This document shows, piece by piece, positions 1-60,019 of a DNA stretch of 64,000 nt. The stretch comes from Candidatus Nomurabacteria bacterium (GTDB lineage: Bacteria; Patescibacteriota; Minisyncoccia; Phycocordibacterales; SBAW01). The notes beneath the pieces were generated by a model. That model saw only the letters and a program-made list of their open reading frames with translations. It was not told the DNA's origin and searched no databases. The stretch's first letter is position 1. Each line of letters starts with the position of its first letter. Where the stretch lies: positions 551 through 64,550 of the forward strand of contig CALRFF010000003.1 in assembly GCA_943356495.1 (NCBI GenBank), given 5' to 3'. The translations under genes were made by a program, and so were the position numbers.

Positions 1-3000
1 ACCATACCTCCAACACCTCTGCACCCGAGACAGACTATCTCTTGCTCGACTCAACGGCCGCCACTGCAGACGACGACACGTACTGGAACGACACCAAGCC
101 GACTGCATCTGTCTTCTCCGTCAAGTCTGCCACTGCCGTCAACGCCTCCGGCGCCACCTACGTCGCATACCTCTTCGCCTCCACCACGGGCTTCTCCTCA
201 TTCGGCTCCTACACGGGTAACGGCAGTGCCGACGGGCCCTTTGTCTACACTGGTTTTAAACCTCGCTTTGTGCTTGCTAAGCGGACCGACTCAACAGGTG
301 ACTGGTTTATGATCGACTCTGCGCGGACTACCACTACTAACCCCATAATTCCGACTGTGTGGGCCGATTTGGCGGATGCGGAGCAACTCAGCACCGCTCA
401 GGCTGACTTTAATGCAAACGGTTTTAAGCTCCGTTCCACCGGAGGCATAAATACCAGCACAGCAACCTATATCTACGCCGCATTCGCCGACGTGCCGTTC
501 AAATATTCCTCCGCAATCTCCGACGTCGGCGCGCTCTCCATCGCCAACTCCGCGCGGTTCATCTCGGGCAACAGCGATTATTTGAGCAAGACACCCGGAA
601 GTGCAAGCAACCGCAAAACCTGGACTTTTTCAACCTGGGTGAAACGAGCTGAGCTTGGCGCATATCAAAATATCTTTCAGATAGGAACAGCGGGTTCAGA
701 TTCGACGACATTCAATTTTCGTTTCGACTCCTCCGACCGTCTCGATATTGGAGGTGGCGCGACCACGTGGCGCGTTACGAGTGCGGTGTACCGCGATCCC
801 GCCGCTTGGCTTCATCTAGTGTTGGTAATGGATACGACCCAAGCGACTGCCGCCGACCGAATAAAACTGTATGTGAACGGCTCGCAGGTAACGGCGTTTG
901 GCACAAACGCTAATCCGACGCAAAATGCCGATCTCGCCGTCAATAACAACGCACTGCACGCAATTGGTAGGCACAATGACCCCACACAGTATCTCAACGG
1001 ATATCTATCGGATGCTCACTTGATAGACGGCGCGGCGTTGGCGCCGACATGCTTTGGCGAGACAGACGCTAATGGATATTGGAGGCCGAAGACCTACAGC
1101 ACCGCGTCGCCCTGCGCGGCATACGGCACCAACGGATTCAAGCTCTCGTTCGGCACGGGGAGTGCGCTCGGCACCGACACTTCCGGCAACGGCAACACGT
1201 GGACAGTCAACGGTCTTACCTCGGTCGACCAAGTTATCGACACACCCACTAATAGCTTCCCTACATTGAGCCCTATCGGTAATGTGGTTGCAGCGACGAG
1301 CCGCAGTACTCTGGCGAACGGCAATCTGAAAGCATCATCGGGTGCCGCGGTAAACGGATTACTCGCTACGCAAGAGTTCCCCACAACCGGCAAATGGTAC
1401 TCAGAGATAACACTGAATACCGCGCCGCCCTATCCATCACTCGGCCTAGCAATTTCTCAAACTGCCAACCAGCAGTACATAGATGCGGGTGTATATCTTA
1501 ATAGCTCTACGGGCATTTGGTACAACTCACAAAGTGCCACCGGACCGGCTACGAGCGATGCCGTAGGATTGGGCACATGGTCGAGCGGCGACGTGCTGAA
1601 CATCGCCTACGATGCGGACAATGGCAAGATATGGTTTGGCAGGAATGCCACCTATTACAACTCGGGAGATCCCGCCGCCGGCACTAATGCTACTTTTTCC
1701 GGTTCTGTTGTCGGTAGTAACAGATGGCAAGTCGGTGTCGGGACATATACCGGAGATTTGACCGTCAACTTCGGCCAGGGAGGTTTGGCCAGCCTGACCT
1801 ACGACTCCGCAGCGGGTGGCTACTTTAAATACACCCCACCCTCGGGCTACAAAGCCCTCTCGACCGCCAACATGGCGACACCCACCGTGACGGTGCCTAA
1901 AAATTATTTTGATGCCGTTACTTATCTCGGCACAGGCGCTGCAGAGACAGTCAAGGCATATGCGGTAACAGAAACATTTTATTACACGGGTGCGGACCAA
2001 ACATGGACAGTCCCAACAGGAGTCACCTCAATACGCGTAAAAGCGTGGGGTGCGGCAGGAGGCTCAACATCGCAAACGGGGGCTAACGCGGACTATGCAG
2101 GCGCGGGCGCGTATGTGACCGGAGAGATAAGTGTAACTGCAGGACAAACCTTAAAGTTGGTAGTAGGGCAGGGCGGTTCGCCCCGTGCAACCTCGGGGGG
2201 GCAGACGTATGGTGGTGGTGGCGGCGCCGGTACAAACAATGGGGTGTCGCCGGGCACGGGCGGGGGATATTCTGGCATATTTCTTACCTCGGTAAGCCAA
2301 GGCAATGCACTCGCCGTCGCGGGCGGCGGCGGCGGGTCTGCCAACACGAGCGACGCCGCTCAGTCTGGCGGAGCCGGAGGAGCCACGACCGGCTCGACAG
2401 GCACAGGGCCCGGCGGTACGGGTGGTACTACCTCGGCAGGTGGTACGGCCGGCACCGCAGGCTCAGGCCAAACCAACGGCTCGGCTCTTACCGGCGGCGA
2501 CGGCGCAACGCTCAACGGCGGCGGCGGCGGCGGCGGATACTATGGCGGCGGCGGCGGCGGGCAAACGACATCCGGCGGCGGCGGTTCAAGCTACCTTGGC
2601 ACCATGACAAATGCGTCAACAACCGCGAGTTCGGATGGTCATACTGCACCAAAAAAATCTGATCCCAATTATCCTAGTGGTGGAGTTGGCGAGGCTGATA
2701 CCACAGGAAATGTATCGGGTGGAAGCGGGCATATTGTCATTAGTTACAATATAAGCAACGTCACCGGCTTTACCCCCGACATCGTGTGGATTAAAGACCG
2801 TACGAGTGCGAATGCGCACGGGATTTTTTCCACTTCAACAACGCTGTATCCAGCGTGGGCGAGCAACGGCTCTGCGGCCGAAGGGGGCGGCACTACTGCC
2901 TTGCTCTCGTTTTTGAGTAACGGCTTTAGTCTCGGTGCATCTACCACGGTTAACACCAGCGGCGACAGTTATGTAGCCTGGATGTGGAAGGAGAGTGCAA

Positions 3001-3704
3001 CCGCCGGTTTTGACATCGTTACCTACACGGGCACGGGCGCCGCACAAACTATCGCCCACAGCTTGGGCAAAGCGCCTGACTTTATTATCGTCAAGCGCCG
3101 CGACGGCGCCGGCAGCCCGGCGGTGTATCACACCTCCAACACCTCGGCACCTGAGACCGACTACCTTTTGCTTGACTCGACTGCCGCCACCGCCGACGAT
3201 GATACTTACTGGAACGATACTAAACCGACTACGTCGGTGTTTAGCGTCAAGTCCAACACCAACACTAATTCCTCGGGCGCTACCTACGTGGCGTATCTCT
3301 TTGCCTCTACCACCGGCTTTTCCAACTTCGGCACTTATATAGGCAACGGCTCCGCCGACGGGCCGTTTGTGTATACGGGCTTCAAACCGCGTTTCCTGAT
3401 GTGGAAGCGAGTAAACAGCACAGGCTCATGGGGTGTCTATGATACGGTCCGTTCCACGTACAATCCGGCAACCGCAGGACTTCTTTTTGAGGAGAAGGGA
3501 GCAGAATTTTCCTACGATGCTTTTGATGTCCTCTCCAATGGATTCAAAGTACGTGCTGCAGGAGCAGGCACAAACGCGAGTAGCGATACACATATCTACT
3601 TTGCGTTTGCTGAACAACCGTTCAAATACTCCGCCGCTTCCGCATCCTCGGCAGCCTCCACTTTCGTCCAAGCAGTCGCCTTCCTCCTCGGCATGACGTT
3701 CTAA
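1..3704 (+). CDS. Very large secreted/surface protein, 5'-partial. Domains: LamG/ConA-like (~nt 600-900), SPRY-like (~nt 1380-1800), ALK-type glycine-rich domain (~nt 2000-2600). A ~130-aa module is duplicated at the N and C termini.
   Basis: The ORF continues in frame to nt 3 (HTSNTSAPETDYL upstream of the TTG at 42), so the gene starts outside the window. LamG_3-like pattern WTFSTWVKR...WLHLVLVMD...IKLYVNGSQV. SPRY-like GKWYSEITLN...GIWYN...GDVLNIAYDADNGKIWFGRN. Gly-rich block WTVPTGVTSIRVKAWGAAGG...LKLVVGQGG...GGGGGGGYYGGGGGG. The terminal modules (aa ~1-90 and ~1045-1135) are about 90 % identical in protein but diverged in nucleotide sequence. Confidence 0.7.
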   Translation, partial: HTSNTSAPETDYLLLDSTAATADDDTYWNDTKPTASVFSVKSATAVNASGATYVAYLFASTTGFSSFGSYTGNGSADGPFVYTGFKPRFVLAKRTDSTGDWFMIDSARTTTTNPIIPTVWADLADAEQLSTAQADFNANGFKLRSTGGINTSTATYIYAAFADVPFKYSSAISDVGALSIANSARFISGNSDYLSKTPGSASNRKTWTFSTWVKRAELGAYQNIFQIGTAGSDSTTFNFRFDSSDRLDIGGGATTWRVTSAVYRDPAAWLHLVLVMDTTQATAADRIKLYVNGSQVTAFGTNANPTQNADLAVNNNALHAIGRHNDPTQYLNGYLSDAHLIDGAALAPTCFGETDANGYWRPKTYSTASPCAAYGTNGFKLSFGTGSALGTDTSGNGNTWTVNGLTSVDQVIDTPTNSFPTLSPIGNVVAATSRSTLANGNLKASSGAAVNGLLATQEFPTTGKWYSEITLNTAPPYPSLGLAISQTANQQYIDAGVYLNSSTGIWYNSQSATGPATSDAVGLGTWSSGDVLNIAYDADNGKIWFGRNATYYNSGDPAAGTNATFSGSVVGSNRWQVGVGTYTGDLTVNFGQGGLASLTYDSAAGGYFKYTPPSGYKALSTANMATPTVTVPKNYFDAVTYLGTGAAETVKAYAVTETFYYTGADQTWTVPTGVTSIRVKAWGAAGGSTSQTGANADYAGAGAYVTGEISVTAGQTLKLVVGQGGSPRATSGGQTYGGGGGAGTNNGVSPGTGGGYSGIFLTSVSQGNALAVAGGGGGSANTSDAAQSGGAGGATTGSTGTGPGGTGGTTSAGGTAGTAGSGQTNGSALTGGDGATLNGGGGGGGYYGGGGGGQTTSGGGGSSYLGTMTNASTTASSDGHTAPKKSDPNYPSGGVGEADTTGNVSGGSGHIVISYNISNVTGFTPDIVWIKDRTSANAHGIFSTSTTLYPAWASNGSAAEGGGTTALLSFLSNGFSLGASTTVNTSGDSYVAWMWKESATAGFDIVTYTGTGAAQTIAHSLGKAPDFIIVKRRDGAGSPAVYHTSNTSAPETDYLLLDSTAATADDDTYWNDTKPTTSVFSVKSNTNTNSSGATYVAYLFASTTGFSNFGTYIGNGSADGPFVYTGFKPRFLMWKRVNSTGSWGVYDTVRSTYNPATAGLLFEEKGAEFSYDAFDVLSNGFKVRAAGAGTNASSDTHIYFAFAEQPFKYSAASASSAASTFVQAVAFLLGMTF

Positions 3705-3721
3705 AGATAGTTAAAACACAA

Positions 3722-3745
3722 GTTAGTAGTGAGTAGTTTGTAGTC
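3722..3745. repeat. Left inverted copy of the dispersed ACTAC(C/A)AACTAC repeat family, flanking the IVS-protein gene
   Basis: gttagtagtgagtagtttgtagtc is the reverse complement of the core found at 4145-4169, 4327-4357, 5015-5038 and 5613-5648. Confidence 0.6.
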
Positions 3746-3801: not shown

Positions 3802-4179
3802 ATGTCAAATTTCAGAGAACTAAAAGTATGGCAACGGGGGATAGAATTAGCAAAAGAAATATATAAAACTACCCACGCAATGCCCTCGTCGGAAACTTTT
3901 GCCTTACAGGGGCAGATGCGCAGAGCTGCTGTTTCTATCTCTTCTAATATTGCAGAAGGCTCTAAGCGCAGTACTCGGAAAGACTTTGTCCATTTTCTGC
4001 ATGTGGCAGATGGTTCGGCTGCCGAATTAGAAACACAGATCATCATCGCGAAAGACTCCTATCCTAAGCTCGATTTTTCACGGGCTGATGCTTTACTCGA
4101 CGAGGTCCAAAAAATGCTCTTGGCTATGAGGCGCTCTCTGAGTCCTACTACAAACTACAAACTACCGACTCCCCACTAG
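3802..4179 (+). CDS. Four-helix-bundle protein of the 23S rRNA intervening-sequence protein family
   Basis: Family hallmark ELKVWQ...AMPSSETFALQGQMRRAAVSISSNIAEGSKRSTRKDFVHFLHVADGSAAELETQIIIAKD. Confidence 0.85.
   Translation: MSNFRELKVWQRGIELAKEIYKTTHAMPSSETFALQGQMRRAAVSISSNIAEGSKRSTRKDFVHFLHVADGSAAELETQIIIAKDSYPKLDFSRADALLDEVQKMLLAMRRSLSPTTNYKLPTPH
4145..4169. repeat. Right copy of the ACTACAAACTAC repeat (encodes the C-terminal TTNYKLPT of the IVS protein)
   Basis: ctactacaaactacaaactaccgac. Related copies at 4327-4357, 4961-4984 (inverted), 5015-5038 and 5613-5648. Confidence 0.6.
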
Positions 4180-4183
4180 CTAT

Positions 4184-4969
4184 ATGCCTCCGAAAATTGA
4201 AAATAAAAATTTGGATGCTGTACAAGATTTGCTTGTACAATCGAGTATGCAGATGGTGCAGCCGCCGGTTGTGAGTAACGACCAAGCGGCTAGTGTGCTA
4301 GTGGGTAGCGGAACTATAAACTCCTCACTACCAACTACCAACTACCAACTACAAACTCCGGTTGTTGCTGCACCTCCGCCGGTCGCCCCGACTCCGCCGC
4401 CTCCTACACCTATCTATACACAAGTTGCCCAGCCGGTTGCCGTTGTGCAACCAACACCGGTTACTGTTGCGCCACCGGTTGCGCACTCCAGACTACGGCC
4501 GTTGCTTGGCCCCGCACTGTTTTTATTCGGGGTCGCGCTGGTGGCCTACTCGGTGCGGTTGGGGAGCATCACCGGAGGCTCGATGGAACCTACCTTGCAC
4601 GAAGGCCAACACTTGGTTATCGATGCGCTCACGTGGCGCTTTACCGGTGTGCATCGCGGCGATGTGTTGGTGTTTACCAACCCGCACGACCGCACAACGG
4701 TCGAGGTAAAGCGCGTGATAGGCCTGCCGGGAGAGTCGGTACTTATCGAGGGCGGTACTATCGGGGTGACGCCGCTTGGCGGACGGTACGAGGAGTTTCC
4801 GCAGGGGACCGACATAGGCGGGCATGGCGATATAGCCAACTTTACTATCCAGCTCGGGGTAGAGGACTTTTTTGTCCTCGGCGACAACCGCCCCAAAAGC
4901 ACCGACTCCCGCGACTTTGGCGGGGTGCAGGCGGTCGACATTATCGGGCGGGTAATAGCTAGTTTTTAG
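4184..4969 (+). CDS. lepB: Signal peptidase I (LepB family) with a ~100-aa proline-rich N-terminal extension. The true start is uncertain.
   Basis: Catalytic boxes GSMEPTL (Ser), KRVIGLPGE (Lys) and GDNRPKSTDSRDFG. One TM segment LLGPALFLFGVALVAYSV precedes the catalytic domain. Confidence 0.8.
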   Translation: MPPKIENKNLDAVQDLLVQSSMQMVQPPVVSNDQAASVLVGSGTINSSLPTTNYQLQTPVVAAPPPVAPTPPPPTPIYTQVAQPVAVVQPTPVTVAPPVAHSRLRPLLGPALFLFGVALVAYSVRLGSITGGSMEPTLHEGQHLVIDALTWRFTGVHRGDVLVFTNPHDRTTVEVKRVIGLPGESVLIEGGTIGVTPLGGRYEEFPQGTDIGGHGDIANFTIQLGVEDFFVLGDNRPKSTDSRDFGGVQAVDIIGRVIASF

Positions 4970-5039: not shown

Positions 5040-6233
5040 ATGCAACAAATTCTTAACTTTTTCAAATACAACAACGCGTTCCCTATTATGCTCGGGGTTA
5101 TATTCCTCGGCTCGGGGGCGGCGTTTGCCGCGGTTGACCCCGAGGCGGTGTACTCGGCCCAGCAGGAAGTTATTTCGGTAGACAACACCTACATTGCGGG
5201 CAAAGACTTTACGCTGTGGACGCCGCGCATACTTATCAATGAGGTGACCGAAGACGCCGACAACTATTACGTCGCCTATGCACTTACCACTATCGATGTG
5301 GTTGACTACGCGTGGCGCGATGCCGCAAAAAATAATGTCATGACCGTTTCCAAGGCCGACCTCGGCGTGCGCGACTTGGGAGTGTACGTTACCGGCCAGT
5401 TCCGCAACATTATCCAGAACGAGCTCGCGTACTTGACCGAAGTGCAGACCAACGCTAAAAAAGCGATTTCCCAAAAAATAGTAGCAACCACCTACGGCGG
5501 GCTTATCGGCAAGTTCCTCGACTCGACCACCGAAACACTGCCGGGGTATGTGCCGGTAGTACAACCGCCAACAGCGAGTAACGACCAAGCAGCTAGTGTG
5601 CTAGCGGGTAGCCAAACTACTAACTCCTCACTACCCACTACCAACTCCGGTGGTTCTTCTAACTTGATGTCGTTGCAGGTGCTCGGCAACAACCCCGCGC
5701 GCGTGGCGGTGGGCGGCGGTTACCTCGACCTCGGGGTCTTGTCGGTCAACCCGACCAACCCCAACATCGGGTACCATGCGTTTGTAAACGGCATACCAAG
5801 CGACCCGCCAAGTATTGATACCTCGACCACCAGCGCGCATGTTATTGAGTATCGCGCCACTGACCAGGCGGGTAATCACTTAAAGGTGGTGCGTATTGTG
5901 TTGGTGGGCGACGCACCCGACCCGGGCGGCGCGATAAACAAAGCAGGCAATGTGCCGACGATTGTACAAGGGGAGATAAAACCGCCCGAGCCCGAGCCGG
6001 CACCTGCGCCCGCTCCCACAAGTGCTCCCGCCGCTGCTCCTGTAGAAACGCCGGCAGCGACCACAACCGAACCTGCTCCCGAGCCGGAGCCCGCTCCTGC
6101 TCCGGCGGCCGAAGAGCCGGCGCCTACGCCCGCACCCGTGGTTGAAGAACCTGCCCCTGTCGCACCCGTCGAAACTCCGCCGGCTCCTGCAGAGACACCT
6201 CCCGCCGAAGCAACAGCGACCACCACTCCGTAA
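5040..6233 (+). CDS. Secreted protein with a signal peptide, a bacterial Ig-like segment and a low-complexity PEPAP-rich C terminus
   Basis: N-terminal signal MLGVIFLGSGAAFAAVDPEA. Ig-like HVIEYRATDQAGNHLKVV. C-terminal PEPEPAPAPAP repeats. Shares a ~75-nt duplicated segment (5584-5650) with the lepB gene (4271-4350). Confidence 0.55.
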   Translation: MQQILNFFKYNNAFPIMLGVIFLGSGAAFAAVDPEAVYSAQQEVISVDNTYIAGKDFTLWTPRILINEVTEDADNYYVAYALTTIDVVDYAWRDAAKNNVMTVSKADLGVRDLGVYVTGQFRNIIQNELAYLTEVQTNAKKAISQKIVATTYGGLIGKFLDSTTETLPGYVPVVQPPTASNDQAASVLAGSQTTNSSLPTTNSGGSSNLMSLQVLGNNPARVAVGGGYLDLGVLSVNPTNPNIGYHAFVNGIPSDPPSIDTSTTSAHVIEYRATDQAGNHLKVVRIVLVGDAPDPGGAINKAGNVPTIVQGEIKPPEPEPAPAPAPTSAPAAAPVETPAATTTEPAPEPEPAPAPAAEEPAPTPAPVVEEPAPVAPVETPPAPAETPPAEATATTTP

Positions 6234-18881: not shown

Positions 18882-21800
18882 TTGATGCAGCAACAAAGCC
18901 GCAACCTATGGATATTACTGGGCGCGGTTGCCGTAGCCGCGGGTATCCTGTCGCAGGGTTTTTTTGCCGAGCAATTTAGGCTAGTCTTGGCTACACTGCC
19001 CGCTGCCTCGCAAAGCGCCACAACTGCGCTTGGTGTCGAGCAAGGCTTGCCCTCGTATAGCGGCTACCCGTCGCCGACCAACTGCAGCACCGGCGAAAGT
19101 CTTTGTTACCCGAACACGCGCATCACTATGGTAAGCGTGCGCGACCAAGGCGGCGCCTCGGGCGCAGGGGAGACAAAATATATGGATTTAGCAGGGGTTG
19201 CAGGCTCTTCCGGTACCCCGGTAGTATTGGCGACACTTAACCCCACTACCATTCAATGGTCGTGCCAGCCGTCGCAGGTCGTAACCAGTCCTTACTATCA
19301 ATCGCAGACCTGCTCCTCCACTTACGACTGTAGCTGTTGGTTGGACTCCTATGGTGGTGTATTTTGCAGCACGTGTACCAGTTATTACGAGTGCGGGTAT
19401 TGGACCACACAAACCAACACCTACACGATGAGCGCGGGGTCCACCGGGAGCGGCGGAGCATTTACCGCAGGCGGCCTTAGCGGGTCGCAAACGCTTACCT
19501 ACCCGGTGGGTACGTACGAAACCGGAGAGGTCGTGCCCTACACCCTTTCCTGCAACTACGGTACACCCGTAAGTATCAACGTCACCATGGGGTCGACGAT
19601 TACCACCACCTCGCTGTCGGCAAGTGCTACCACCTTGCGCGCGGGGCTCGACCAAACAACGCTTACGGTTACCGCCACTGATGCGGTTGCCGACTCCTGC
19701 CAGTTGTTAGGTAACGCGGGTGTCATTAAGTCATACACGGGCACTAGTGTTAGCGACATAATAGACGTAGGGCCTTTCAACAACGAAAGCGAATCACAAA
19801 CCGTACGCATAAGGTGTATTACGCCGGAGGGCTTCAGCAAGACGTCGTCCGTTACTCTGACGATAAAAATACCGCCGGCACTTTCTATCACCGCAAACAA
19901 CCTCCCTACGGTCGCCTTTGTCGCGCCGAACACCAGCGCCGATATACGCTGGACCTCGAGCAACCAATATCCTAACTCCTGCTCGGTCAGCTATACCGCG
20001 TACGGCGGCTCGTGCGCCGCCGCGGCCAAGTATGTCGCCACTAAAGGCGCCTATGCATGGAAGGCGTTTACCGTGGACGGGGATACCTTTTTGGCGGTCG
20101 CCAACGCGTACGACGGCACGACGTACAACACCGACTCCAGTATTTACAAATGGGTGTCGAGCTTGAGCTGTTTCGGTAAAGACGCCGAGTCGCCGTGCGG
20201 GACGTCGTACCAAGACATAGCCACCAACGGCGCCTCCATGTGGGAGTCGTTTACCGTCTCGGGCGATACGTACCTTGCGGTCGCCAACAGCCGTAATGAC
20301 ACGACCCGTCTGGTGAATTCAAACATATACAAATGGCTTTCCGCACAGGCGTGCTTCGGGGCGGACACGACCTGCGGCACGGCGTACCAGTCGATACCCA
20401 CAAGCGGCGCGGTCGACCTGCAGCCTATTACTGTCGGTTCTACGTTATATTTGGCCGCGGCCAATTATCGCGACGACACGACCTACGCCACCAGCAGTAC
20501 GCTGTATCGCTGGATGTCCTCGGGGACCAATTGCCCTTCGGGCGGCGGCTTCGGCAACGGTGCTGCCTGCGGGTCGGTGCTGCAGTCGATAGCTACTAAA
20601 GGTGCCTACCGCATGGAAGCATTTGTAGTAGAAGGTGAGTCGTACTTGGCGGTCAGTAACGCCTACGACGGCAGCGGGTATAACCTTCCTTCCCATATCT
20701 ATAAATACACCGCGACCGGCACTAACTGTCCCTCGGGCGGAGGCTTTGGCAACGGCAATACGCATACCTGCGGGACGCCGATACAAACCATAAACACGAG
20801 CGGGGCATACGGGTTTAAATTCTTTATGGTCGGCAGCGCGCCGTACCTTGCGGTCGCCAACTCCTACGACGGCACCACCTTCCAGATCAACTCAAAGATT
20901 TATAAATGGATGAGCGGCAGCAAATGCTTCGGCAGCGGGACTACCTGTAGTGCCGCGTTTCAGGTATTGGCAACCAAGGGCGCCACGCAGCTGCAGACGT
21001 TTACTATCGGCCCGGAGACGTACCTGCTTGCCGCCAACGCGTACGACGGACTTACCTACAATATAAGTTCCAGCATGTACCGCTGGATGCAAAGCTCCCA
21101 GTGCTTCGGCAACAGCACCTCTTGTGGCACTGCGCTCGAAGTAATCCCCACGAGCGGAGCGGCATGGTGGGAGCCGGTCACAGTAAACGGCGACGTGTAT
21201 TTGGCGACCGCCAACTACTTTAACGGCACTACCCGCAACATAAACTCCGCGATTATGAAGTGGTCTCCGAACGGCTGCGGCGACACAGAGTTTGGTACTC
21301 CGGCCACGTGGACCGCCGACCAAAGCCCCGTCGCCGGCTACCCGACGGGAGTCTTTTCCGGCGCTCGACTGTATACGCTTGTTTGTAAATGGATGGACAA
21401 CACCACCGCCAGCAGTACCAGCGTCATCGTATCGGTGTTGCCGGAACTTATATTGAGCGCCAACGGCAGCACTACCAACCCTGTGTATGTGACCCCCGGC
21501 AGCGCGGCGCTTATACAGTGGTCGGCAAAGAATGTGCAAAACGGTTCCTGCGGCGTCACCAACACCTACGACGCTTCTAATTGGGCAGGGGACAACAACT
21601 CCGCCGGCTACTCCTCGCCGGTGTTTAGCAACGGACAGGAAATAACCTACACGCTCGCCTGCCTTGGGCTGGACGGCGCACCGCTTACTAAGGTAATGCG
21701 GGTCATCGGCGCTACGCCGGTGCCGCTGCTTTCCAGCCTTTCTATATCCGCCTCGCGCGTGGTTAAAGGCGGCCGCCCGACTATCCACTGGAACGCCACC

Positions 21801-22028
21801 GACCTTGATGCCGGCATCGAGTGTAGCGTTACACCTACCTTGCAGGGCGGTGCCTCGGCCTCTACGTGGGATGGCTCGGGTACTACATGGAGTTCACCCG
21901 TGGGCGGCGCGATAGGGCCCATTATCACCGTGGCGACCGCCTTTACGCTTAAGTGTGTTAATGCGGCCGGCGACATCGCGCAGGTCTCTGCGGTAGCCAA
22001 CCTGATTCCGGGCTTTAAGGAGATATAA
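18882..22028 (+). CDS. Secreted multi-domain protein with two Ig-like modules, a seven-bladed EAR/EPTP-like beta-propeller (nt ~20028-21270), then two Ig-like modules
   Basis: Seven ~55-aa repeats of the form C-x-G...Q-x-I-x-T-x-GA...F-x-V-x-G-x-x-YLAVAN-x-x-(D/N)-x-T-x-x-x-S-x-IYKW, which is the EAR/EPTP consensus. N-terminal signal peptide. Confidence 0.7.
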   Translation: MMQQQSRNLWILLGAVAVAAGILSQGFFAEQFRLVLATLPAASQSATTALGVEQGLPSYSGYPSPTNCSTGESLCYPNTRITMVSVRDQGGASGAGETKYMDLAGVAGSSGTPVVLATLNPTTIQWSCQPSQVVTSPYYQSQTCSSTYDCSCWLDSYGGVFCSTCTSYYECGYWTTQTNTYTMSAGSTGSGGAFTAGGLSGSQTLTYPVGTYETGEVVPYTLSCNYGTPVSINVTMGSTITTTSLSASATTLRAGLDQTTLTVTATDAVADSCQLLGNAGVIKSYTGTSVSDIIDVGPFNNESESQTVRIRCITPEGFSKTSSVTLTIKIPPALSITANNLPTVAFVAPNTSADIRWTSSNQYPNSCSVSYTAYGGSCAAAAKYVATKGAYAWKAFTVDGDTFLAVANAYDGTTYNTDSSIYKWVSSLSCFGKDAESPCGTSYQDIATNGASMWESFTVSGDTYLAVANSRNDTTRLVNSNIYKWLSAQACFGADTTCGTAYQSIPTSGAVDLQPITVGSTLYLAAANYRDDTTYATSSTLYRWMSSGTNCPSGGGFGNGAACGSVLQSIATKGAYRMEAFVVEGESYLAVSNAYDGSGYNLPSHIYKYTATGTNCPSGGGFGNGNTHTCGTPIQTINTSGAYGFKFFMVGSAPYLAVANSYDGTTFQINSKIYKWMSGSKCFGSGTTCSAAFQVLATKGATQLQTFTIGPETYLLAANAYDGLTYNISSSMYRWMQSSQCFGNSTSCGTALEVIPTSGAAWWEPVTVNGDVYLATANYFNGTTRNINSAIMKWSPNGCGDTEFGTPATWTADQSPVAGYPTGVFSGARLYTLVCKWMDNTTASSTSVIVSVLPELILSANGSTTNPVYVTPGSAALIQWSAKNVQNGSCGVTNTYDASNWAGDNNSAGYSSPVFSNGQEITYTLACLGLDGAPLTKVMRVIGATPVPLLSSLSISASRVVKGGRPTIHWNATDLDAGIECSVTPTLQGGASASTWDGSGTTWSSPVGGAIGPIITVATAFTLKCVNAAGDIAQVSAVANLIPGFKEI

Positions 22029-53158: not shown

Positions 53159-60019
<6,861 letters not shown>

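Follow-up and report, generated by a model that had tools for sequence, protein, structure and literature searches.

A 5'-truncated giant gene on a Patescibacteria chromosome probably encodes a mosaic surface protein built of phage-fibre-like tandem units

Does a giant gene of phage tail-fibre-like domains in a Patescibacteria genome belong to a virus or to the cell, and what does the repeat inside it represent? The gene opens a 64,000-nucleotide stretch of a Candidatus Nomurabacteria contig (CALRFF010000003.1, assembly GCA_943356495.1; hereafter the window, in whose coordinates positions are given), and a first-pass annotation had read it as a giant surface protein with LamG, SPRY and ALK-type glycine-rich (Gly-rich) domains and an ancient duplication of its terminal module. 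We consider that the gene probably encodes a giant protein that a Kaiserbacteria-like member of the Patescibacteria exports by Sec, processes with signal peptidase I and displays on the cell surface, where it would act as an adhesin or host-recognition fibre, and that the repeat belongs to a much larger unit. Homologous proteins and the contigs or loci of related genes are numbered below with P and L, respectively.

Frame 3 is open from the third base of the window through the stop codon and gives 1233 amino acids (aa); as had been stated before, the gene is 5'-truncated by the window edge. In the Pfam search, DUF7483 (PF24299) matched the protein twice, with 441 bits in total against a gathering score of 27. 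Copy 1 (aa 9–165, 176 bits) covers only the latter half of the profile (positions 174–330), and copy 2 (aa 920–1206, 284 bits) covers positions 22–330. The LamG and ALK-type calls of the first-pass annotation were borne out by Laminin_G_3 (PF13385; aa 189–344, 57–63 bits, gathering score 27.6) and ALK_LTK_GRD (PF12810; aa 678–877, 51–54 bits, gathering score 24.5), and Gly_rich_2 (PF21722) reached 19.5 bits on the same protein, under its cut-off. The SPRY call stands less firmly, since SPRY (PF00622) matches aa 465–551 with a weak 19–22 bits, under the gathering score of 26.3, while the aligned region of the homologues scores 32–66 bits. The earlier comparison with phage tail-fibre-type proteins agrees with matches to PHROG families 19943 (virion structural protein) and 24898 (tail fiber protein) and with the relatives in T7-like podophages described below. 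The giant protein had no match in NCBIfam or, by sequence, in the Protein Data Bank (PDB); no near-identical DNA of the gene was found in the phage collection, and no further copy of the four domains occurs elsewhere in the window.

The intragenic duplication is real. A direct repeat connects 3–283 with 3129–3409 at a spacing of 3126 nucleotides (nt), and aa 1–89 and aa 1043–1131 are identical at 81 of 89 residues (91%), with 76% identity in DNA. Most of the differences fall at third codon positions, and every base is involved; 45 codons differ synonymously, the proportion of synonymous differences is saturated (pS = 0.73), and the non-synonymous value is low (dN = 0.089, dN/dS ~0.03). The repeat is thus old and under strong purifying selection, as had been proposed. 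Its extent is another matter. Instead of the ~130 aa first assigned to it, the high-identity block (block A) comprises 89 aa; past the motif GFKPRF the identity of the copies drops to ~44%, and the homology runs for at least 167 aa, bounded only by the window edge. Nor does the second copy form the last residues of the protein, as a tail of 23 aa comes after it.

The closest full-length homologues explain this pattern. Two complete tandem units make up each of three such proteins: P0001 (1886 aa, 67–69% identity to the window protein); P0002, of 1952 aa, annotated as 'hypothetical protein HYS26_04540' in the closed Candidatus Kaiserbacteria chromosome CP066682.1; and P0005, of 2133 aa, encoded on an 852-kb scaffold. 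A unit begins with (S/T)IxNSxRF, continues with LamG, SPRY, an optional Gly-rich domain and DUF7483, and ends in ..AAFA(D/E)xPFKYS; the Gly-rich domain is present or absent unit by unit. Since these homologues consist of two tandem units, the window holds the end of one unit and the whole of the next one. In this predicted architecture, the repeat is the visible end of a tandem array of whole units of ~1040 aa (LamG-SPRY-[Gly-rich]-DUF7483), and not a duplicated terminal module. Among some longer proteins, such as P0251 (4064 aa), DUF7483 was matched in up to 8–10 stretches, so that arrays of more than two units exist.

The domain combination had been called unusual. It is not, since LamG, SPRY, Gly_rich_2 and DUF7483 form the standard architecture among 5988 close matches of a very large family; clustered at 50% identity, the proteins with DUF7483 number 21,801 representatives at E up to 1e-3 and 10,371 at E up to 1e-30. 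Phage-type proteins, too, commonly have two DUF7483 copies. In a scan of one genome per species, relatives were found in many Patescibacteria metagenome-assembled genomes (MAGs), namely of Kaiser-, Nomura-, Gracili-, Peri- and 'Sacchari'-bacteria and Paceibacterota, and phage-type copies were scattered through other phyla. A literature search yielded no paper that deals with DUF7483 or with these Patescibacteria proteins.

DUF7483 itself consists of three homologous repeats of ~100 aa, all pairs of which align with an HHalign probability of 98% and E ~1e-13, and phage proteins of a single repeat (110–117 aa) exist. The AlphaFold2 model of copy 2 is all-beta, with a predicted local distance difference test score (pLDDT) of 85 and a predicted template modelling score (pTM) of 0.85; the C-terminal tail is disordered in it (pLDDT <50). 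It agrees with models of viral DUF7483 with template modelling (TM) scores of 0.75–0.83 and a root-mean-square deviation of ~2 Å. A Foldseek search of the PDB with this model gave no significant fold match, and single repeats matched no other Pfam family at E up to 10. The match to the pseudo-threefold APCbeta beta-prism (7pln) was weak and non-significant (E 3.8e-3, TM 0.23–0.28), and we do not rely on it.

The Gly-rich block is, in its AlphaFold2 model, a folded domain and not mere low complexity (pLDDT 90.4, pTM 0.88). Its 11 best matches in the PDB are structures of the TNF-like/glycine-rich (TG, or GRD) domains of LTK and ALK (probability 1.0, TM 0.35–0.44), with E 5.8e-7 for 7nx1 and 6e-7 to 3e-6 over 7nx1 and 7nx4; the tail tip of phage Bxb1 (4.5e-5) and the fibre of cyanophage Pam3 (1.8e-3) match as well. 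The window domain shares a PF12810 match above the gathering score with the TG domains of ALK/LTK, Pam3 gp24 and S16 gp38, from which it differs in that the TM scores reach only 0.35–0.44 at ~20% sequence identity, and no cytokine-type ligand is implied. In phage fibres the TG domain caps a trimeric shaft, whereas the window domain is nested inside a DUF7483 repeat. It lies in repeat 1 between the strands ..YFDAVTYLGTGAA and GFTPDIVWIKDR, which units lacking the domain join directly; at the same place, the sister-strain unit without it reads ..NYFNAVIYTGTGAAL..GFRPDIVWLKDR. A phmmer search with the window Gly-rich domain gave no match in 130 homologues, so that it is a different cassette from theirs. 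The Gly-rich domain of the nearest relatives is of the PF21722 type or missing, and the closest relatives of the window domain are small stand-alone PF12810 proteins (40–46% identity). As judged by these family matches, the unusual part of the domain combination is the PF12810-type cassette.

Comparison of strains reveals how the units behave. Three sister-strain contigs (L001, L002 and L005, from two European Nucleotide Archive (ENA) metagenome assemblies and one NCBI MAG) are 93–98% identical to the window downstream of 3592, and their terminal unit has no Gly-rich domain. The last repeat of that unit is 94% identical in aa to the first, partial unit of the window, with its last ~110 nt 100% identical, and the switch to the sequence of window unit 2 is located inside the conserved motif YIYAAFAD.PFKYS by blastn, translation and three-way alignment. 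One whole unit is therefore absent from these contigs (Table 1). A second event concerns an 812-nt segment around LamG, which is 93.1% identical in nt to unit 2 of P0001 (98% in aa for the LamG part). Other substantial matches of the gene to the P0001 locus (L006) reach 70–83% in nt, two matches of ~50 nt reach 92–95%, some parts are undetectable, and the flanking S26 proteins of the two loci are only 56% identical in aa. The ENA analysis accessions under which P0001 and the sister contigs are filed (ERZ27280192, ERZ27280223 and ERZ27280297) are neighbouring, which suggests one project. Similar patterns were seen between other homologues: P0001 and P0003 agree to 92% in the last repeat, though identity is ~50% elsewhere, and P0004 and P0005 are 94% identical in the preceding block and 46% in the last repeat. 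The gene is a mosaic, in which units are gained or lost between strains and segments are exchanged with a more distant relative, rather than one ancient duplication kept intact.

Chimeric joins in a repeat-rich gene could mimic both the internal repeat and the strain difference in units. Every assembly of the window species breaks inside the giant gene, and two Logan contigs begin at 3098, beside block A copy 2, as would be expected of such artefacts. This origin is, however, highly improbable: with just 76% DNA identity, the copies differ too much for k-mer collapse or mis-joining, and two-unit genes are found in the closed Kaiserbacteria chromosome and the 852-kb scaffold. Moreover, the three sister contigs share the in-frame, unit-less junction as three deposited records, whose read sets are possibly not separate. 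The assemblies break inside the gene probably because of heterogeneity rather than sequence collapse.

The chromosomal position of the gene separates a cellular from a viral origin. The window carries gap, rpiB, rpe, a split transketolase gene (tkt), fba, L25, dnaE, gyrB and pheST, and further RNase III (rnc), RNase HII, dnaG, rpoD, fused rpoBC and sortase genes. The order giant gene, S26 (signal peptidase I), hypothetical gene, gap, rpiB and rpe recurs in L006–L010, and the transketolase genes extend it in L007–L009, not in L010. Between the window and L007/L010, GAPDH is 60–62% identical, RpiB 38–40%, Rpe 32–37% and S26 38–46%; transketolase, compared with L007 only, is 65–76% identical. Since the giant protein (50–54% identity to L007/L010) falls amid these housekeeping values of 32–76%, its divergence is that of a core gene with a fixed place in the chromosome. 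The gene thus placed is a cellular chromosomal gene, not a phage gene, which the first-pass annotation had not recognised.

On the other hand, the protein might be a true virion tail fibre, encoded by an integrated prophage or its remnant, with the window starting inside the prophage. PHROG and tblastn matches to tail-fibre and virion structural proteins point in this direction, as do the genes upstream in L007/L010, which encode an HTH_17 (excisionase-like) protein and another giant protein that matches PHROG structural families, and an adjoining Y1 transposase-like gene. However, no capsid or head, portal or terminase gene was found within 10 kb of the giant gene in L007 or L010, and the flanks hold cellular housekeeping genes instead of a phage structural gene module. 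The same chromosomal neighbours accompany the gene across genomes whose housekeeping proteins are 32–76% identical, and the signal sequence and hydrophobic tail of the cellular homologues do not occur in the phage versions; a virion fibre, assembled in the cytoplasm, should bear no export signal. With this synteny and these export signals, the prophage idea is largely rejected, and we regard it as very improbable.

The phage relatives show what a unit corresponds to. T7-like podophages of marine and fresh waters encode, in their tail-fibre gene module, a complete protein with which one window unit is co-linear: CYYG_00029 of Cyanophage SS120-1 ('virion structural protein', 781 aa) and, split over two genes, gp36 and gp37 of Pelagibacter phage HTVC011P ('tail fiber protein'). 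These genes are located between internal virion protein/tail fibre genes and terminase genes. The podophage proteins share the domain order and the motifs YxIxxSxRF at the start and AFAExPFKY at the end, with 35–40% identity over the unit, and the predicted DUF7483 fold (TM 0.75–0.83, as above). They differ in having no signal sequence, the end ..PFKYANAR, no hydrophobic tail and a place in a virion gene module, whereas the window gene is chromosomal, multi-unit and tailed and carries the PF12810 Gly-rich insert. The two podophage examples have a single unit, unlike other phage-type proteins with two DUF7483 copies. The Patescibacteria MAG proteins P0001, P0002 and P0005 are closer, with orthologous locus and architecture, 50–69% identity and S26, gap, rpiB and rpe as neighbours; they differ in their Gly-rich domain, which, where present, is of the PF21722 type and stands in either unit, and all are uncharacterised.

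The ends of the homologues bear on where the protein is located. Among the 120 best homologues, 69 have the phage-type end ..PFKYANAR, and 67 of these 69 are without an N-terminal hydrophobic segment. A C-terminal extension of ~20 aa, ending in FLxGMx(F/Y) or ..(F/W/M)E(F/I/W), is found in 44 of the 120; a strongly hydrophobic N-terminal segment accompanies it in 31 of the 44, and most others lie just below the threshold used. The N-termini of P0001–P0013 show a long n-region, an h-region and AxA, followed by AY(T/S)IxNS.RF, and AxA is the predicted signal peptidase I site directly ahead of the first unit. The surface location in the first-pass annotation is therefore likely, as the full-length homologues bear a signal sequence with this site. 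Since the N-terminus of the window protein lies outside the window, we infer its export from these homologues.

The gene next to the giant gene but one encodes a signal peptidase I of the S26 family with the catalytic Ser (GGSMEPT), the Lys (KRVIGLPG) and the motif GDNRxxSxDSR, and an S26 gene also adjoins the giant gene in L006, L007–L009, L010/L011 and L012. Dedicated signal peptidases stand beside the genes of their surface-fibre substrates in other bacteria, such as SipW with TasA/TapA in Bacillus subtilis and SipA/LepA in streptococcal pilus islands. As in these systems, a signal peptidase I gene adjoins that of a large protein with predicted export to the surface, and the two are fused in some relatives of the window protein; the substrates, however, are unrelated in sequence, and the window S26 may be the sole signal peptidase I of a small genome. 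In the fused proteins P0044, P0056, P0068 and P0074, all from short metagenome contigs, a whole signal peptidase I domain stands N-terminal to one unit (LamG-SPRY-Gly_rich_2-DUF7483) with the end tail FFLGMSF. Peptidase and unit are joined by a short hydrophobic stretch, which is a vestigial h-region, and by AEG followed by AY.

Export and a conserved position would also suit a main structural protein of the envelope, of the surface-layer (S-layer) type, whose variability would mean escape from phages or predators and not a changed binding target. Its conservation at the rate of core genes at a fixed place near a signal peptidase gene, its signal sequence and C-terminal tail, and its strain-level variation, often seen in surface layers, fit such a protein. 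We consider this explanation unlikely, because the domains are of lectin and receptor-binding types (LamG, SPRY and TNF-like/Gly-rich) and no known S-layer or S-layer-homology (SLH)-type anchoring domain was found in the Pfam and NCBIfam profile searches. A secreted, cell-free protein that binds or degrades carbohydrates for nutrient scavenging is a further candidate, as Laminin_G_3 belongs to the ConA-like lectin/glucanase superfamily and Patescibacteria depend on external substrates (PMC12911398). This role is very unlikely: no catalytic glycoside-hydrolase family was matched in Pfam or NCBIfam, the conserved hydrophobic C-tail argues for retention on the cell, and the protein is built like a receptor-binding fibre.

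Several points weigh against the assignment as an exported adhesin. The N-terminus of the protein itself is outside the window, no assembly reaches the start of the gene, and a search for the upstream part through three neighbouring proteins returned only contigs whose ends fall within the gene. The C-tail ..SAASASSAASTFVQAVAFLLGMTF fits no known sorting signal, having neither an LPXTG/PEP-type motif nor basic residues, and is shorter than a standard transmembrane helix requires. The S26 enzyme may simply be the housekeeping signal peptidase of the cell. In addition, the tail-fibre role of the phage relatives is based on gene position and annotation, and the label Kaiserbacteria-like is taken from the labels of syntenic MAGs, the closest being CP066682.1.

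The features of the locus are listed in Table 1. Between the giant and S26 genes lies a small gene for a four-helix-bundle protein, preceded by an A+T-rich spacer and flanked by 24-nt inverted repeats (3721–3744 and 4147–4170, 83% complementary); its relative is fused to the signal peptidase in L006 and lies upstream of the giant gene in L010. Since this neighbour is Avd-like, a diversity-generating retroelement with the giant gene as its target was considered; it was rejected, as the differences between the block A copies are not adenine-specific and no reverse transcriptase domain was found in the annotated parts of the window nor in L007/L010. The next gene after S26 (5040–6233, + strand; 397 aa) encodes a protein with a hydrophobic segment in its N-terminal part and a C-terminus rich in Pro, Ala and Glu; it has a 47%-identical homologue at the same position in L007 and no family match.

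In many Patescibacteria loci, the DUF7483 giant gene is adjoined by a gene of the Y1 (IS200/RAYT-like) transposase family of ~220 aa (L006 510–1187, L007 9340–10008, L010 15856–16515, and also L012, L013, L015, L022 and L029), and the start and stop codons of the two genes often overlap. The RAYT-like protein scores 42 bits with Pfam Y1_Tnp and 55 bits with NCBIfam REP_Tyr_transpos, under the cut-off of 80. In the genome of the window, its expected position is upstream of the window. No hairpins resembling repetitive extragenic palindromes (REP), possible RAYT substrates, were found at the unit boundaries; the sole inverted repeats flank the four-helix-bundle gene. Upstream of the DUF7483 gene, the second giant protein of L010 (2734–9504) and L007 (3263–9316), 2017–2256 aa long and without a Pfam match, matches PHROG head-decoration, virion-structural and tail-fibre families with E down to 6e-87 and is preceded by the HTH_17 protein.

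Further away in the window, a sortase gene (PF04203; 35792–36415, + strand; from L050) lies ~32 kb off the giant gene, whose protein is without an LPXTG-type signal. An open reading frame of 2286 aa (53159–60019, + strand) encodes a fused RNA polymerase beta and beta', with Rpb2 domains at aa 19–1048 and Rpb1 domains at aa 1066–2160; both halves are short. A protein of 1048 aa (18882–22028, + strand) carries seven copies of the EPTP repeat (PF03736, E 6e-68), which is best known in animal proteins.

Table 1 Positions of the giant gene, its segments and the two genes that follow it in the window
Feature	Position (nt)	Strand	Remarks
Open reading frame of the giant protein	3–3704	+	1233 codons and stop at 3702–3704; N-terminus beyond the 5' edge
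DUF7483 fragment closing the preceding unit (second half of repeat 2, and repeat 3), end ..YIYAAFADVPFKYSS	3–503	+	PF24299, 176 bits
Block A copy 1, 89 aa, highly conserved	3–269	+	
Whole unit absent from L001, L002 and L005	469–3591	+	3123 nt = 1041 codons, exact
Recently exchanged segment: unit junction, LamG and following linker	472–1282	+	Compared with P0001 unit 2 in L006
Laminin_G_3 / ConA-like lectin domain	567–1034	+	aa 189–344, Pfam
SPRY-like domain	1395–1877	+	Pfam aa 465–551, taken to ~aa 625; PHROG 27411 spans aa 190–625
First strand of DUF7483 repeat 1, KNYFDAVTYLGTGAAETV, cut off by the Gly-rich insert	1899–1952	+	By comparison with units without the Gly-rich domain
ALK/LTK-type TNF-like and glycine-rich domain (PF12810), nested in the DUF7483 repeat-1 loop	1956–2753	+	
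DUF7483 copy 2, three repeats	2760–3632	+	Repeat 1 to 3011, repeat 2 3012–3317, repeat 3 3318–3632
Block A copy 2	3129–3395	+	91% aa and 76% nt identity to copy 1
C-terminal extension: Ser/Ala linker and hydrophobic end FVQAVAFLLGMTF	3633–3701	+	Present in cellular homologues, not in phage ones
Four-helix-bundle gene (23S_rRNA_IVP family, TIGR02436)	3802–4179	+	Between the giant and S26 genes
Signal peptidase I (S26) gene	4184–4969	+	TIGR02227, 96 bits (cut-off 47)

Taken as an adhesin or host-recognition fibre, the protein would be a chain of at least two units of ~1040 aa, each co-linear with a complete podophage LamG-SPRY-DUF7483 protein. Each unit would present a ConA/LamG lectin-like domain, a SPRY-like domain and a three-repeat DUF7483 knob, with an optional TNF-like/polyglycine-rich domain inserted into a loop of repeat 1. 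The lectin-type and Gly-rich domains may bind glycans or proteins on the surface of the cell or particle to which the ultra-small bacterium attaches. TNF-like/Gly-rich domains are the receptor-binding tips of the phage fibres Pam3 gp24 and S16 gp38 (PMC9608196), and Patescibacteria encode many ConA-like lectins that are thought to serve attachment (PMC12911398). Binding specificity could then be altered through cassette exchange: recombination at the conserved ends of the units would add or remove whole units, and single domains (LamG, Gly-rich and the last DUF7483 repeat) would be swapped among units, strains and related species. The hydrophobic C-tail probably keeps the protein on the envelope.

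A more far-reaching scenario, which we put forward as a speculative and rather doubtful one, is that Kaiserbacteria-like Patescibacteria domesticated a phage receptor-binding fibre, which they now inherit vertically as a core surface organelle, with Sec export and a coupled signal peptidase. Its units and tips would be cassettes actively shuffled among co-occurring strains and species, possibly aided by the conserved RAYT-like gene that is translationally coupled to the giant gene in relatives, and the shuffling would switch the host cells to which the episymbiont can attach.

The cellular subfamily with its signal sequence, hydrophobic tail, neighbouring or fused signal peptidase and conserved synteny appears to be undescribed, and the same appears to hold for the strain-level turnover of units and cassettes and for the three-repeat anatomy with a nested Gly-rich domain. 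For a family of ~21,800 representatives with no solved structure, this is the first anatomical description of DUF7483, as three repeats that tolerate the nested insertion of a domain. Since host recognition and attachment by ultra-small Patescibacteria are largely unknown, the giant protein offers a concrete candidate for a determinant of their specificity. If this role is true, it would be a clear case of one recognition module that serves viruses and cells alike.

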